Shown in pieces: positions 18,687 to 24,624 of a stretch of DNA of 64,000 bases. Below the pieces are notes generated by a model, which saw only the letters and a program-made list of their open reading frames with translations, had not been told where the DNA came from and did not search any database. Source of the DNA: a virus. Taxonomy: Duplodnaviria > Heunggongvirae > Uroviricota > Caudoviricetes. The stretch lies in the IMG/VR virus record IMGVR_UViG_3300005613_000034; one strand, 5' to 3'. The position numbers were made by a program, and so were the translations under genes. Position 1 is the stretch's first letter, and each line of letters starts with the position of its first letter.

Positions 18687-19412
18687 TTAATGTACGAATA
18701 CATTTAAAAAGGTTTCGGTAGTCTTGCTTCCGATACCATCAACCTTAAAAGACCCGTCATTCAGTGCTTTACGAAGAGAAGAAAAATCCGGGTAAATTTT
18801 TTCAATTGATTTAGCTTTCTCTTCACTTATATTAGGTAAAGACATTAAAACATTTCGGTAAGTATTATCTTTATGTTTAGCATGTGTTATTGCCATACCT
18901 CTTATCTCTTTTCCATCTGTAAGCTTTTCGGCAACCATTAACAAAAAATCAATAAATTCATCGTCATTTTTAACAAAAATCATTTCTACATTAGTATATC
19001 GCGCGGCAACACTAGACATAATTCCAAGAAGCTGATTTCGAGAAAAAGTTTTTACATTTTGTACTATTCCCATAGCTTTTAGCTTCGCCCGTTCTTTGTA
19101 AATAGCATCGATGTCACCAACGACAATTAAAAAATTTTTAGAAAAACTATTATTCATCTTATAAAGCTCTGAAAATATTCTTCCATTATAAATTGATCCA
19201 ACTAAATCACTAAAAATCTTTCGCTCAACACAAAATTTATGTCCTGTTTCTTTATTTTCAACAATATAATCTCCAATTTTAAGTTGTTTCATTTCATATT
19301 TAACTCCAGCGGCATCAAATTTTGGAATAATATTTTTATCAATACTATTTTTATGTTCTTCTCTATGATCAATTGTTATATTAAAATTATCTTTATTTAC
19401 CATATTTATCAC
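18687..19412 (-). CDS. XPF/Mus81/Hef-family ERCC4 nuclease with C-terminal HhH
   Basis: IGDYIV...CVERK signature (GDxnERKxxD); C-terminal DGIGSKTTETF HhH. Confidence 0.75.
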   Translation of the reverse strand: MINMVNKDNFNITIDHREEHKNSIDKNIIPKFDAAGVKYEMKQLKIGDYIVENKETGHKFCVERKIFSDLVGSIYNGRIFSELYKMNNSFSKNFLIVVGDIDAIYKERAKLKAMGIVQNVKTFSRNQLLGIMSSVAARYTNVEMIFVKNDDEFIDFLLMVAEKLTDGKEIRGMAITHAKHKDNTYRNVLMSLPNISEEKAKSIEKIYPDFSSLRKALNDGSFKVDGIGSKTTETFLNVFVH

Positions 19413-20031
19413 CTTTCTTTAAATTATCTTCAGCCCATAAAGGTTGTAAATTTTTATAATTAAAACATTTTTTCTGTTCTTCTAGTTTACTTAAATCAAA
19501 ACTTACACAAGGTTTAATATGATCAATATGCCAACCAAATTTTCCATAATTATCCCAAGACATTCCGTCCTTAAATTGTTTTTCTAAATGTTGTTTACAT
19601 TCTTCAATAGAACAACCTAAAAGTTCTTTTGTACAATCAGATTTATAATTTCCTTTTAATGCATGAATTATTCTCATTCTTTGATTTGTAGCAATTCTAA
19701 AATTAATATTATTTTTACGTCTATTTTTTAAATATAAATTAATTTTTTTTCTATTATTAATAGAATATATTTTTTTATTGTTTGAAATTTTTTCTTTATT
19801 ATTTTCTCTATATTTTTTATCAGATATTCTTTTCTTTTCAATATTATTTTTTCTATATTTTTTCATTTTTTCTTTCATTATTTCTTTATTTAATTTATAA
19901 TAATTATTTGTTTGTGTTTTTATTTTTTCTTTATTTTTTTCATAATATAATTTATTATATTTATCTGTTTGAATTTTTATTTTTTCTTTATTTTTTAAAC
20001 GATAATTTTTCATATATTCTTCTTTAGTCAT
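19393..20031 (-). CDS. HNH endonuclease with Lys-rich repetitive N-terminus
   Basis: [10 protein letters not shown]...N..LQPLW..N..K HNH core. Confidence 0.8.
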   Translation of the reverse strand: [212 protein letters not shown]

Positions 20032-21211
20032 GTAAAAATTCCTCCATAGTTTCTTTAATATATATTATATCATCTTTAGAAACACCAGGATGAATCCCAG
20101 TCCAAAATAATTTATTTGTAATATTATTTGTATAATCTAAACTACCAGAAACTTTATACTTTGAATCTTTATAAGCTTTTTGAAGAGTAACATTACCACC
20201 AAATAAAAGACGAGTAGCAATATCTTTTTCATTTAAATAAAGCATTAATTCTTTTCTAGAAACTAAAGGGTTTTTAATAATCATAGGAAACCCAAACAAA
20301 ACGGGGTCCGCGTGTTTATTAATTTTAATAAAATCAATTTCATCTTTTAATGGAGACATGATTTTCATATAATTTTTAAAATTTCTTCTCCGTGAAGAAT
20401 TAAATTTTGGAAGACGTTTGATTTGTTCAAGACCAAAAGCGGCCTGCATCTCTGTAGGTTTTAAATTATAACCAATAGAAGAATACATATATTTATGATC
20501 ATATTCAATGTCACCAAGTTTGAAGTTGAAACGATTTTTACAACGATTATCTTGCCCGGCCATACAAGAACAATCTCTCCCCCAATCTCTAAAACTTTTA
20601 ATATATTTTAAAGTCAAAGGATCTGAAGTAGCAACTGCCCCACCCTCACCAGCTAAAGTAATATGATGGGCTGGGTAAAAACTAGCTGTAGAAACATTAC
20701 CAAAACTTCCACATGGTTTATTTTTATAAGTAGATCCATAAGCATCGCATGTATCTTCTAACAAAAATAATTTATTATCTTTACAAAACTTTCGAACTTT
20801 ATTAGCTTCAAAAGGATTACCTAAAGTATGTGCTAAAACAACACCAACAGTCTTTTTACTCAAAGCTGTTTGGAGTAGTTCAATTGGGGCATTTAAAGTA
20901 TTATCAATATCAACAAAAACCGGAGTAAAACCAAGTTGAATAATAGGGTTAATAGTAGTAGGAAAATTACATGCGGGAGTAATGATTTCTCCACCTTTCA
21001 AATTATAACGTTTTTTTATAGCTTCAAGTGCCAATAAACTTGCAGATGAACCAGAGTTAGTCAACGCGGAAAATTTCTGCCCCATAATACCAGCAAATTT
21101 ATTTTCAAATTTTTCACCAGTTTTATTCAAACCTAAACGCCCATCTTCCAAAACATCTACTGCTGCGCCAATTTCATTATAATCATAAATAGCTTTACCT
21201 GTTAAAATCAT
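20024..21211 (-). CDS. DegT/DnrJ/EryC1/StrS-family PLP-dependent sugar aminotransferase
   Basis: ALTNSGSSAS..; 395 aa; family-typical layout. Confidence 0.8.
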   Translation of the reverse strand: MILTGKAIYDYNEIGAAVDVLEDGRLGLNKTGEKFENKFAGIMGQKFSALTNSGSSASLLALEAIKKRYNLKGGEIITPACNFPTTINPIIQLGFTPVFVDIDNTLNAPIELLQTALSKKTVGVVLAHTLGNPFEANKVRKFCKDNKLFLLEDTCDAYGSTYKNKPCGSFGNVSTASFYPAHHITLAGEGGAVATSDPLTLKYIKSFRDWGRDCSCMAGQDNRCKNRFNFKLGDIEYDHKYMYSSIGYNLKPTEMQAAFGLEQIKRLPKFNSSRRRNFKNYMKIMSPLKDEIDFIKINKHADPVLFGFPMIIKNPLVSRKELMLYLNEKDIATRLLFGGNVTLQKAYKDSKYKVSGSLDYTNNITNKLFWTGIHPGVSKDDIIYIKETMEEFLHD

Positions 21212-22961: not shown

Positions 22962-23840
22962 TTAATTACCTCCTGTCTGTAGATCTATGAATGGAACCAC
23001 TCCACCACCCAACATATACTGTGGAACTGATCCGTCCCAACGTTGAACCGCTTCATAATCAATCAATTTTGCATTTTGAGAAAGTTGTTCTCTTACAACT
23101 TGTAATGCATATGCTTCTGAATCAGCTTTCTGCCGAATTGCATATGCTTCAGCGTCGGCTTCAAGTTTTACTCTTTCGTTCTGAGCTTCGGCTTGAGTGA
23201 TAGCTTGTTCTTTTTCAACTTTAATACGAACAAGTTCTCTTTCAGCTTTAAGTGCATCCTGCTCAGCCTTTACTTTAGCTTCAATAGCAAGATTAAATTC
23301 GGGGCTGAAATCAAAGTTTGTGATACTCAAATTTTGAACAGTTAAAGAATACCCAGATAATCTATTTTTCAAATTTTCTTCAATAGTATTCTTTACTAAT
23401 GCACGTTGAGTAATCAATTCTTCGGCTGTGAACTGAGCTGTCGCAGCTTTAACTGATTCTTCGATTGCCGGATCAATAACTCTAGATCGGTAATCATATC
23501 CAATAGTTTGGAATAATACATGAGCTTGATCTGCATTTACTTTATAATTCAAAGCAACAATTGTTTTTACAACCTGCAAATCTTTAGACGCAGCACTTGC
23601 ATCCGCCGATATTTTTTGAGTTTTAACATCAATTAGATTAACACCTTGAATAACAGGCATTTTAAAGTGAATTCCTTCTCCTAAAGAGTATGGTTCCACA
23701 GATCCTAATGTAGTTAGAACTCCTCTTTCACCCGGACCAACGATCGCGAATGAACTCAATCCAACAATAGCAACAATTACCACTAACAAAATTATGATAA
23801 CTTTACCTGCTGGAAAATTTACTTCTACTTCCTTTACCAT
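22962..23840 (-). CDS. SPFH/band-7 (prohibitin/stomatin/HflKC-like) membrane protein
   Basis: N-terminal TM, then SPFH core and Ala/Glu-rich coiled coil. Confidence 0.8.
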   Translation of the reverse strand: MVKEVEVNFPAGKVIIILLVVIVAIVGLSSFAIVGPGERGVLTTLGSVEPYSLGEGIHFKMPVIQGVNLIDVKTQKISADASAASKDLQVVKTIVALNYKVNADQAHVLFQTIGYDYRSRVIDPAIEESVKAATAQFTAEELITQRALVKNTIEENLKNRLSGYSLTVQNLSITNFDFSPEFNLAIEAKVKAEQDALKAERELVRIKVEKEQAITQAEAQNERVKLEADAEAYAIRQKADSEAYALQVVREQLSQNAKLIDYEAVQRWDGSVPQYMLGGGVVPFIDLQTGGN

Positions 23841-23890
23841 TTATTACACCTCTGTAAATATAATTATAACAAAACATTTAAAAACCTTAC

Positions 23891-24624
23891 TCAAAAAATG
23901 CTGCTAATGTAGTTTGAGAATTCTTGATGTTTACCACTCTTTTTTAAATTATCTTTAGCCCATAAAGGTTGGAGATTAGTATAATTAAAACATTTCTTCT
24001 GTTCACTTTCTTTAGATAAATCAAACGAACAACAAGGTTTAATATGATCAATATGCCAACCAAATTTTCCATAATTATCCCAAGACATACCGGGTTTAAA
24101 CTGACTCTCCAAATGTTTCTTACATTCATCAACTGTACAACCAAGTAATTCTTTAATTGATACACTTTTTTCATTTGTTTTTAAAGAATTTTTAAATCGC
24201 TTTCTTAAATTATCTAATAATTTAAATTCCCAATCATTTTTTAATCTTTCTTTTTTATATTCAATACATTTTTTAATAATTTTTTCTTTATTTTTTAAAT
24301 AATATTCTCTTGATTTTTTTCTATATAATTCCTTATTTTTAATATATCTTATATGTTGTTTTTCTTTTATAATTTTTTTGTTTTTTTCTCTATATTCTTT
24401 TTTATATTTTTTAATTTTTTCTAATATTTTTTCCTTATTTTTATTAAAATATATTTTTTTCTTTTCATATAATTCATCTTTATGATATTCATAATATTTT
24501 TTCCATCTTTTTTACATTCTTCTTTATTTTTTTCTCTATATCTTTTCCATTTACAATATTTAGAACAATATAAAATACGTTTATTTTTTGAAATAAATGT
24601 TTTATTACATAATTTACATTTCAT
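23891..24624 (-). pseudogene. second HNH endonuclease copy, apparently disrupted
   Basis: 73-aa intact C-terminal ORF near-identical to C-terminus of 19393..20031; upstream Lys-rich part in a different frame (24421..24624). Confidence 0.5.

Follow-up and report, generated by a model that had tools for sequence, protein, structure and literature searches.

Two HNH-like genes around a set of membrane and sugar genes in a 64-kb virus record are probably independent homing-type insertions

Results and discussion

Two HNH-like genes, here named HNH1 and HNH2, flank positions 20032-23890 of a 64-kb stretch of virus-like DNA, IMG/VR record IMGVR_UViG_3300005613_000034 (the window; all coordinates are those of the whole stretch). 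From comparison with related genomes we judge it likely that the two genes are independent selfish insertions of homing type, that they do not form the brackets of a cassette, and that the genes between them are not their cargo. An initial annotation had read the pair as direct repeats that could mobilise or delete the intervening block; this does not agree with a close relative that keeps the genes without either HNH gene, nor with the separate scar found at each HNH gene. The main value of the analysis lies in correcting this tempting cassette reading of similar nuclease genes around a gene set. Nothing in it is new in kind, as both free-standing homing-type nuclease genes and viral glycan modules are known.

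A sibling genome keeps the bracketed genes and lacks both HNH genes

The genome has a GC content of 28-30%, and the studied region is a long minus-strand gene run in which most neighbours overlap by 4-11 nt or lie less than 50 nt apart. It begins with a gene for a 942-aa primase-like protein, an open reading frame (ORF) of 73-89 aa, PolB, HNH2, SPFH, tm95 and tm114, and continues with a doubtful 47-aa ORF, the sugar genes SDR and RfbH, HNH1, ERCC4, a coiled-coil membrane protein and a Vsr/DUF559-like gene (Table 1). An ENA contig, ERZ27256772 k141_970554, is 100% identical to window positions 14621-36513 (21.9 kb). Further relatives were traced from PolB homologs (58-70% identity) to the contigs carrying them (L007, L014-16, L002/3 and L005/6), and about five related lineages were compared.

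The sibling genome L007 is the closest relative, with identities to the window of 80% for the primase, 84% for SPFH and 74% for ERCC4. It has an HNH gene at neither of the two sites, yet it runs in the same order: PolB-SPFH-tm95-tm120-[66-aa ORF]-ERCC4-coiled coil. In the remaining lineages HNH-family members stand elsewhere. A 231-aa member lies upstream of PolB in L014-16, where the order continues PolB-83 aa-SPFH-tm95 (primase 82.5% and SPFH 79% identical to the window), and a 282-aa member lies upstream of PolB in L005/6 (PolB 63% identical). In L002/3 (PolB 68.5%, primase 47.5%), a 6-kb accessory stretch comes first, then a 205-aa member directly upstream of SPFH.

All five related lineages examined carry an SPFH gene between PolB and ERCC4, and SPFH and tm95 follow PolB in the three clade-A genomes (window, L007 and L014). 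The bracketed genes appear to have been inherited with the backbone, because SPFH is about as similar to its L007 and L014 counterparts as the primase, a gene outside the bracket, is to its own; the HNH genes come and go individually. The five-gene block of the initial annotation thus has the gene content described, but it does not form a single unit: SPFH and tm95 belong to the backbone, and only SDR and RfbH are accessory. Comparing relatives for presence or absence of the block exactly between HNH copies, as had been proposed, did not return that pattern.

Searches beyond these lineages gave no close match in INPHARED (blastn with 19000-25000; tblastn with PolB) and no relatives in IMG/VR scans with PolB and with RfbH. 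Five loci came up in a scan of GTDB genomes with the PolB alignment (38-54% identity); the labels of their bins, archaeon, Planctomycetaceae, Bacilli and Thermotogaceae, give no consistent host, and synteny with the block was gone. The distant PolB relatives L022-L024 (53-55%) carry PCNA, RFC, PriS or 7-deazaguanine genes and have no synteny in common.

Separate insertion scars at the two HNH genes

HNH1, whose coordinates and intact ORF had been given correctly, extends 8 nt into the 3' end of RfbH and 11 nt into the 5' end of ERCC4; L007 has no HNH1 at the corresponding site. The start codon of HNH1 is an ATG embedded in the RfbH stop region, ATGACTAA, and the same ATG starts ERCC4 in L007. 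ERCC4 of the window has a new ATG overlapping the HNH1 stop, and its first ~10 codons read MVNKDNFNIT, compared with MTKEQQFKIL in L007. These sequences point to an insertion of HNH1 at the RfbH/ERCC4 junction that took over the ERCC4 start codon. A 12-nt captured 5' end of ERCC4, suggested by the MTKE common to the starts of HNH1 and L007 ERCC4, was rejected, because the RfbH stop region accounts for eight of the 12 nt and MT.KEY is a frequent start among family members. The safe statement on this identity is that HNH1 and L007 ERCC4 use the same ATG.

At the other site, the ATG of HNH2 overlaps the PolB stop (ATGA), and its own stop (23891-23893) falls within a relic of a PolB 3' end. PolB of relatives ends in SQTTLTSFLE (L014) or NQTTLDSFFA (L007), in each case followed by a stop, and the spacer GGTTTTTAAA comes next in the window, L007 and L014. 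In the blastn alignment of L007 with the window, homology sets in again 30 nt short of the PolB stop of L007, and there it falls on the 3' tail of HNH2 and not on the end of the window's PolB. HNH2 appears to sit inside the old 3' end of PolB, because relic and conserved spacer follow directly after it and the working PolB ends in a diverged duplicate, KSNQSLLTDFFVVNK with its stop.

Both sites show what is expected of free-standing homing genes, namely presence or absence at an exact site between collinear genomes, and insertion at a conserved essential gene with a trace of the target. A composite element would be expected to show the block as a unit with the repeats as its end points; in L007 the block genes stand without HNH repeats, and their accessory part, SDR and RfbH, was lost there through an internal deletion whose end points are 12-nt repeats unrelated to the HNH genes. 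The nearness of two HNH genes around one gene set would then be a chance adjacency of independent insertions.

A cassette has a precedent in phages, where blocks bracketed by homing endonuclease genes (HEGs) and thought to move as units have been described. The signature of such HEG islands is a bracketed region that stays far more conserved between divergent viruses (>90% nt identity) than the genome around it (Barth, Dunham & Seed 2023, PMC10448857). The window resembles them in that two same-family endonuclease genes bracket a gene run beside a DNA polymerase gene, and in that a nuclease gene, HNH2, stands at the PolB/SPFH boundary where relatedness changes abruptly. Moreover, recombination is conceivable in principle between direct repeats that are ~84% identical over 219 nt and include an exact run of 57 nt. 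Even so, it is very improbable that the HNH pair moves the SPFH-membrane-sugar block, or that recombination between them deletes it. Block DNA reaches at best 77% identity to any relative (L007), below the island signature, and no genome with the block missing between chimeric HNH copies was found among the relatives. The bracketed genes are a mixture of backbone and accessory genes that follow the backbone phylogeny without being unusually conserved, they are kept in a relative without HNH genes, and each HNH gene has its own scar. The candidate for exchanged cargo, if there is any, would be PolB and not the bracketed block.

Returning to independent insertion, we propose that the HNH-like proteins, for which nuclease activity and homing are predicted, would cut alleles that lack an HNH gene close to PolB/SPFH and RfbH/ERCC4, and so spread through copying during repair. 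HNH2 would have landed in the last ~10 codons of PolB and begun to decay after fixation; HNH1 would have landed at the RfbH/ERCC4 junction and taken the ERCC4 start codon. SPFH, tm95, tm114 and ERCC4 would represent the vertically inherited backbone. The two genes resemble free-standing HNH homing genes of phages (T4 mobE, PMC2790892; review PMC2988022) in being small putative nuclease genes wedged beside essential replication genes and coupled to their neighbours in translation. Like those genes, they vary in presence at exact sites in collinear relatives and are accompanied by inteins and other endonuclease families in the same module. They differ in a core that scores below every Pfam HNH model and in a family architecture of their own.

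Other nuclease genes of the window are likewise missing from L007. A Vsr/DUF559-like PD-(D/E)XK endonuclease gene (240 aa, with IPWNKG repeats; 17294-18016, minus strand) separates the coiled-coil gene from the next small ORF; L007 does not have it, and its neighbours are only 18-96 nt apart there. It would be a third selfish-nuclease insertion within 7.5 kb. NrdD (30235-33360, minus strand, 1041 aa) holds an intein with LAGLIDADG, and L007 (685 aa) and L005 (675 aa) have intein-less versions; inteins also occur in several PolB homologs of this virus group (~1030 aa). This background of selfish nucleases, of which the Vsr-like gene and the NrdD intein are both absent in L007, supports the reading of HNH1 and HNH2 as selfish insertions.

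Table 1 Features of the studied region of the window, in order of position.
Feature	Position	Strand	Description
ERCC4/XPF-type nuclease	18687..19403	-	Backbone gene; Pfam ERCC4, E = 8e-22
HNH1	19393..20031	-	Intact 212-aa HNH-like ORF; candidate free-standing endonuclease gene
RfbH/E1-type 3-dehydrase	20024..21211	-	Predicted pyridoxamine phosphate (PMP)-dependent nucleoside diphosphate (NDP)-4-keto-6-deoxyhexose 3-dehydrase; DegT superfamily
12-nt repeat in RfbH	20191..20202	-	TTGGTGGTAATG; starts codon 337; one end point of the L007 deletion
SDR	21208..22146	-	Extended SDR, NAD-dependent epimerase/reductase type; Pfam Epimerase, E = 1.6e-45
12-nt repeat in SDR	22095..22106	-	TTGGTGGTAATG; starts codon 14; other end point of the L007 deletion
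47-aa ORF	22143..22286	-	TTG start, between tm114 and SDR; doubtful: uncalled in ENA contig, no L007 counterpart
tm114	22288..22632	-	114 aa, two hydrophobic segments; 41% identical to L007 120-aa protein; backbone of closest relatives
tm95	22673..22960	-	95 aa, one N-terminal hydrophobic segment; backbone; 60-63% identical in L007 and L014
SPFH/Band-7 scaffold	22962..23840	-	292 aa; Pfam Band_7 (PF01145), E = 8e-33, 114 bits vs cut-off 23.6
PolB 3'-end relic	23887..23917	-	Reads SQTTLAAFFE and stop, in a frame other than that of HNH2; GGTTTTTAAA next
HNH2	23891..24624	-	Family member with full architecture (Zn-ribbon, Lys-rich repeats, core); one -1 frameshift
Frameshift zone	24497..24514	-	Two A6 runs, 24514-24509 and 24502-24497, GTAAAAAAGATGGAAAAAA
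PolB	24621..26513	-	Family B DNA polymerase; HNH2 at its 3' boundary

The likeness of HNH1 and HNH2 is common to a large family

HNH1 and HNH2 share 53% amino acid identity over 211 aa, rising to 74.7% over the C-terminal 91 aa. Their DNA is 83.6% identical over 219 nt and 80.8% over 213 codon-aligned nt; the longest exact run covers 57 nt (19507-19563 vs 24032-24088), and tblastn found no third copy in the window. The initial annotation had suggested a dot-plot of the two genes and named low identity limited to the short catalytic core as what would speak against a repeat: the comparison comes near to that condition, since the likeness is indeed confined to a ~215-nt core, but the identity there, ~81-84%, is not low.

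Both proteins belong to a family of at least 7,449 members at E ≤ 0.001 (8,000 candidates scored), none of which carries a Pfam annotation. Its members have a DH...N...N core preceded by Y-x3-NKEKI helical repeats in varying number and, in some of them, by an N-terminal CxxC...CxxxC motif. HNH1 has the Lys-rich helical repeats and the C-terminal core and lacks the N-terminal Zn-ribbon; HNH2 possesses this motif, as do 70 of 120 homologs (~58%). The core described earlier as nearly identical between the two copies is real, but it reproduces the consensus of 34 diverse family members and is no mark of copying. Codon-aligned core identity of HNH1 is 80.8% to HNH2, 81.7% to the L014 homolog and 80.3% to the L002 homolog. 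There is accordingly nothing special in the likeness of the pair, because its core equals the family consensus and its nucleotide identity equals that to homologs from other genomes; the data support HNH1 and HNH2 as paralogs within one very large family.

A recent intragenomic duplication, in which one gene seeded the other and gene conversion kept them alike, is therefore a poor candidate, although it has some points in its favour. When only the C-terminal 91 aa are compared, each of the two proteins is the other's best match within the examined set of 124, which speaks against independent insertions, but the margin is tiny (153 vs 150-152 bits). The 57-nt exact run is unusually long next to the 31-34 nt runs against the L014 homolog, yet the 19 residues it codes for hardly vary across the family, and the genome strongly prefers A/T in its codons. 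At full length HNH2 is only the 116th of 124 blastp matches of HNH1, outscored by ~115 metagenomic homologs, and the N-terminal architectures of the two differ. With so many closer homologs and a core no more alike than across genomes, we do not retain the view of the HNH copies as recent duplicates.

An invariant HNH-type motif in a family without Pfam annotation

The HNH label stands on the catalytic motif and on a fold resemblance that is not significant. Residues D170, H171, N194 and N203 are invariant in the 34 diverse members, as are P174, C175, C189 and K206. Together, D170-H171, N194 and N203 match the HNH catalytic pattern of an Asp-His general base, an Asn, and an Asn/His on the helix. 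In an AlphaFold2 model of HNH1 (predicted local distance difference test score, pLDDT, 86-88; C-terminal 100 residues, 86), the C-terminal part adopts a beta-beta-alpha core, and the N-terminal two-thirds form a series of helices from the Lys-rich repeats. Foldseek matches of the model are almost all beta-beta-alpha-Me nuclease domains.

Several results weigh against this assignment and, with it, against the reading of the genes as homing insertions. All Foldseek matches have E > 1. Neither HNH1 nor restored HNH2 matches Pfam at E ≤ 0.01, nor do their isolated cores at E ≤ 10, and only the family consensus touches PF01844 (E = 0.036, 14.7 bits vs cut-off 21.4). NCBIfam gave no match to the HNH copies and the 34-member family profile found no relative among PDB sequences; the match of HNH1 is to phrog_28061, on its core. 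The endonuclease label given earlier to the two copies is hence favoured by the invariant motif and weakened by the failure of either to reach a Pfam HNH model. Furthermore, the set of about five lineages behind the comparison of insertion sites is small, and every one of them is a metagenomic contig. Window and L007 provide a clear before/after pair at two insertion sites, which would serve as ready targets for an abundant, uncurated family with at least 7,400 members.

HNH2 is interrupted by a single frameshift

In HNH2, the N-terminal frame starts with the ATG at 24624 and is closed by a stop at 24423-24421; its 67 aa include the CxxC...CxxxC motif. From 24511 to 23891 another frame stays open, a stretch of 206 stop-free codons whose chance occurrence is ~1e-11; none of 20,000 shuffles matched it (local DNA is 51% A and 29% T). 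The two frames overlap at 24511-24421. The shift can be placed in one of the two A6 runs, because the family repeat pattern K-x-YY-E begins at the very start of this overlap. A change of one A would restore a 244-aa ORF, no other lesion was seen, and the restored protein aligns from residue 1 with Zn-ribbon homologs in L005, L014, P0003 and P0013. The change of a single base in an A-run thus appears to have disabled HNH2, or to interrupt it at the least. The initial annotation had the coordinates and the frame break right; 'decayed' is too strong a word for a single -1 shift.

It is also conceivable, if rather unlikely, that HNH2 is no pseudogene, either because the shift is a homopolymer error of assembly or sequencing or because a 244-aa protein is made by programmed -1 slippage. 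The lesion is single, the downstream frame has remained open for its 206 codons in DNA of 20% GC, and the restored protein has the full family architecture; besides, the second A6 run forms an A_AAA_AAT heptamer (X_XXY_YYZ type) in the upstream frame. On the other hand, A-runs are so abundant in this genome that such a heptamer is expected by chance, and no homolog was seen with a conserved shift at the same place. The frameshift recurs in the ENA contig k141_970554, which may come from the same population. Homing endonuclease genes that have reached fixation in a population moreover commonly decay by frameshift, which favours an interrupted HNH2.

A sugar-gene pair lost from the sibling genome

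Between the backbone genes and HNH1 lie SDR and RfbH, which overlap by 4 nt and are thereby coupled in translation. RfbH matches Pfam DegT (E = 4e-76) and the NCBIfam RfbH equivalog NF011936 (458.6 bits vs cut-off 423). Against the Yersinia E1 dehydrase (PDB 3BCX) it aligns over residues 11-393 with E = 4e-105; the motif SFYPAHHIT is identical and GRDC-x-C-x7-C is conserved. In the segment SFYPAHHITLAGEGG, a His (position 182, in SFYPAHH) stands where aminotransferases, in the motif SF..xK..xGEGG, have the lysine that forms a Schiff base with pyridoxal phosphate (PLP). It aligns at the same place as the active site of chain 3BB8, which differs from wild-type E1 by a Lys at the active-site His. 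Cys155, 214, 216 and 224 are arranged as C-x58-C-x-C-x7-C, one residue longer than in E1, whose [2Fe-2S] ligands are reported to be spaced C-x57-C-x-C-x7-C. RfbH therefore shares with E1 (RfbH/DdhC/AscC) the equivalog score, the His-containing motif and the four cysteines. It differs in being ~40 residues shorter at the N-terminus (395 vs 437 aa), in being encoded by a virus, and in having one SDR as its sole pathway partner. The His at the PLP-lysine position and the equivalog score rule out the sugar aminotransferase that had been annotated here, and RfbH is best described as a predicted 3-dehydrase.

The partner, correctly recognised as an NAD-dependent epimerase/dehydratase, has a GxxGxxG Rossmann motif, Ser118 and Y143xxxK and lacks the TDE motif of dTDP-glucose 4,6-dehydratases (RmlB). 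Its best PDB matches are GalE-like proteins, and no NCBIfam equivalog reaches its cut-off. SDR and RfbH appear to be a conserved two-gene unit, because they recur as an adjacent, overlapping pair in the glycan clusters L008 and L011 (SDR 42-46%, RfbH 55-57% identical). Lying among glycosyltransferases and methyltransferases on contigs of 34-36% GC, these are the closest RfbH homologs with full context among the matches listed. The clusters are probably of cellular origin, and the pair would have been acquired from one such cellular cluster.

The closest RfbH homolog among the matches listed (65%) is on a 1.9-kb contig of 25% GC (L013, JGI 3300077522), where it is followed by a PfkB-like sugar kinase ORF and by neither an HNH nor an ERCC4 gene. 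This contig comes from the same sample as L014. Treating both as one genome with the same module was rejected, the contigs not being linkable: the SDR found after tm95 in L014 is no ortholog of the window SDR, with no tblastn match at E < 1e-3.

In L007 the pair has been lost by a 1,904-bp deletion between 12-nt repeats. The 64-kb window holds precisely two copies of the repeat TTGGTGGTAATG, separated by 1,904 nt and both beginning at codon position 2. The 66-aa ORF of L007 (13454-13654) fuses SDR codons 1-~17 in frame to RfbH codons ~339-395, the last ~57 residues; it begins MTKNILIIGGN, matching the SDR N-terminus, with its junction at the 12-mer. This fusion ORF implies that SDR and RfbH stood at this site in the common ancestor of window and L007, and the pair is dispensable. 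It offers a clean example of a viral sugar module lost by deletion between 12-nt repeats.

We propose that the pair carries out a C-3 deoxygenation and a redox or epimerisation step on an NDP-4-keto-6-deoxyhexose, diverting this host sugar to a 3-deoxy sugar with host precursors and a host reductase. Its most likely purpose would be to alter host-surface or virion glycans. Auxiliary O-antigen or biofilm genes, rfbH among them, have been reported in viral metagenomes (PMC11295528), and the pair resembles such genes as a small dispensable sugar-nucleotide module with homologs in glycan clusters; it differs in its location in the replication module with no adjacent glycosyltransferase, a single GT9-family gene being found 39 kb away. 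The earlier description as an auxiliary amino-sugar module survives in its accessory character, seen in the loss from L007 and in the same pair of the glycan clusters, but an E1-type enzyme does not fit an amino sugar. Some points count against a glycan role as proposed. The Pfam scan found no nucleotidyltransferase, 4,6-dehydratase or E3 reductase among window ORFs of at least 200 aa, host enzymes would therefore be needed for precursor and electron supply, and the pathway appears incomplete, with a presumed substrate and product. In addition, L008 and L011 could be cellular or viral in origin.

A sugar donor for DNA hypermodification would suit the position of the genes inside the replication module, the DNA methylase and PAPS-reductase-like gene of the window, and the 7-deazaguanine genes beside PolB in the distant relative L024. 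We nonetheless hold this to be the least probable of the alternatives considered here, since the closest homologs with full context lie in glycan clusters, no DNA glycosyltransferase or base-modifying partner is adjacent, and L007 does without the module.

Decoupled relatedness of PolB and the backbone genes

Primase and SPFH divide the genomes into two backbone clades, {window, L007, L014} and {L002, L005}, with identities of ~77-84% within a clade and 30-47% between clades. PolB identity is flat by comparison, 54-69% in every pair (window-L002 68.5%, window-L014 69.1%, window-L007 58.1%). In three of the five lineages PolB has an HNH-family gene next to it, and the jump in identity to L007 from 58% to 84% coincides exactly with the position of HNH2 and the PolB relic. 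This decoupling, seen in few genomes, hints at a nuclease-associated exchange of PolB. It is possible, though we regard it as doubtful, that in these uncultivated, possibly archaeal viruses PolB is swapped as a module, with HNH-like genes at its boundaries driving or marking the swap and HNH2 with the relic as a footprint. If true, PolB alleles would pass from one virus lineage to another, bordered by nuclease genes.

In relatives, the region that follows PolB is a hot spot of accessory genes. It holds LemA, a prenyltransferase and a TROVE/Ro60-vWA protein in L002 (9429-15663), a genome that also has cupin-SDR-PfkB sugar genes elsewhere. The more distant L024 holds a 7-deazaguanine set (PTPS, GTP cyclohydrolase I, QueF and QueC; 3366-8853) upstream of PolB. 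Upstream of PolB in the window, the 942-aa protein (26726-29554, minus strand) is 80% conserved in L007 and L014 and has no Pfam or NCBIfam match; it is labelled primase-like from its position and sequence motifs only.

Further features of the window

The SPFH/prohibitin-like protein and the two small membrane proteins had been identified correctly. SPFH matches phrog_200 (E = 9e-54), has an N-terminal transmembrane segment (hydrophobic residues 15-33), and is ~30% identical to its counterparts in L002 and L005. It shares with SPFH/stomatin/HflK-C scaffolds the Band_7 domain, the N-terminal anchor and the small membrane proteins next to it, as in prokaryotic SPFH operons; it differs in having no recognised NfeD partner and in being a conserved viral backbone gene. 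None of SPFH, the small membrane proteins, HNH1, ERCC4, the coiled-coil protein and the Vsr-like protein matched a defence system in PADLOC.

The 1743-aa ORF at 9807-15038 (minus strand) has no Pfam match. Between the minus-strand and plus-strand gene arrays lies a 1.1-kb non-coding stretch (54452-55591), where GC skew changes sign and 9-bp tandem repeats occur (TAAATTATA, six copies at 54936-54991; TATAAATTT, 4.6 copies at 55076-55116); it could be a replication origin or control region. The right arm that follows (55592-64000, plus strand, 31-35% GC) encodes a tyrosine integrase (55592-56644), a methyltransferase, a radical SAM protein (59168-60208), the GT9-family glycosyltransferase (60677-61624) and tRNA-Ile(GAT) (63876-63948). 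This arm may represent a second viral module or host DNA flanking a provirus; a search turned up no att-like duplicate of the tRNA-Ile region. Near the left end, positions 1285-3467 (minus strand) contain an N6/N4 DNA methylase (381 aa) and a PAPS-reductase-domain protein (260 aa), which could be DNA-modification genes.

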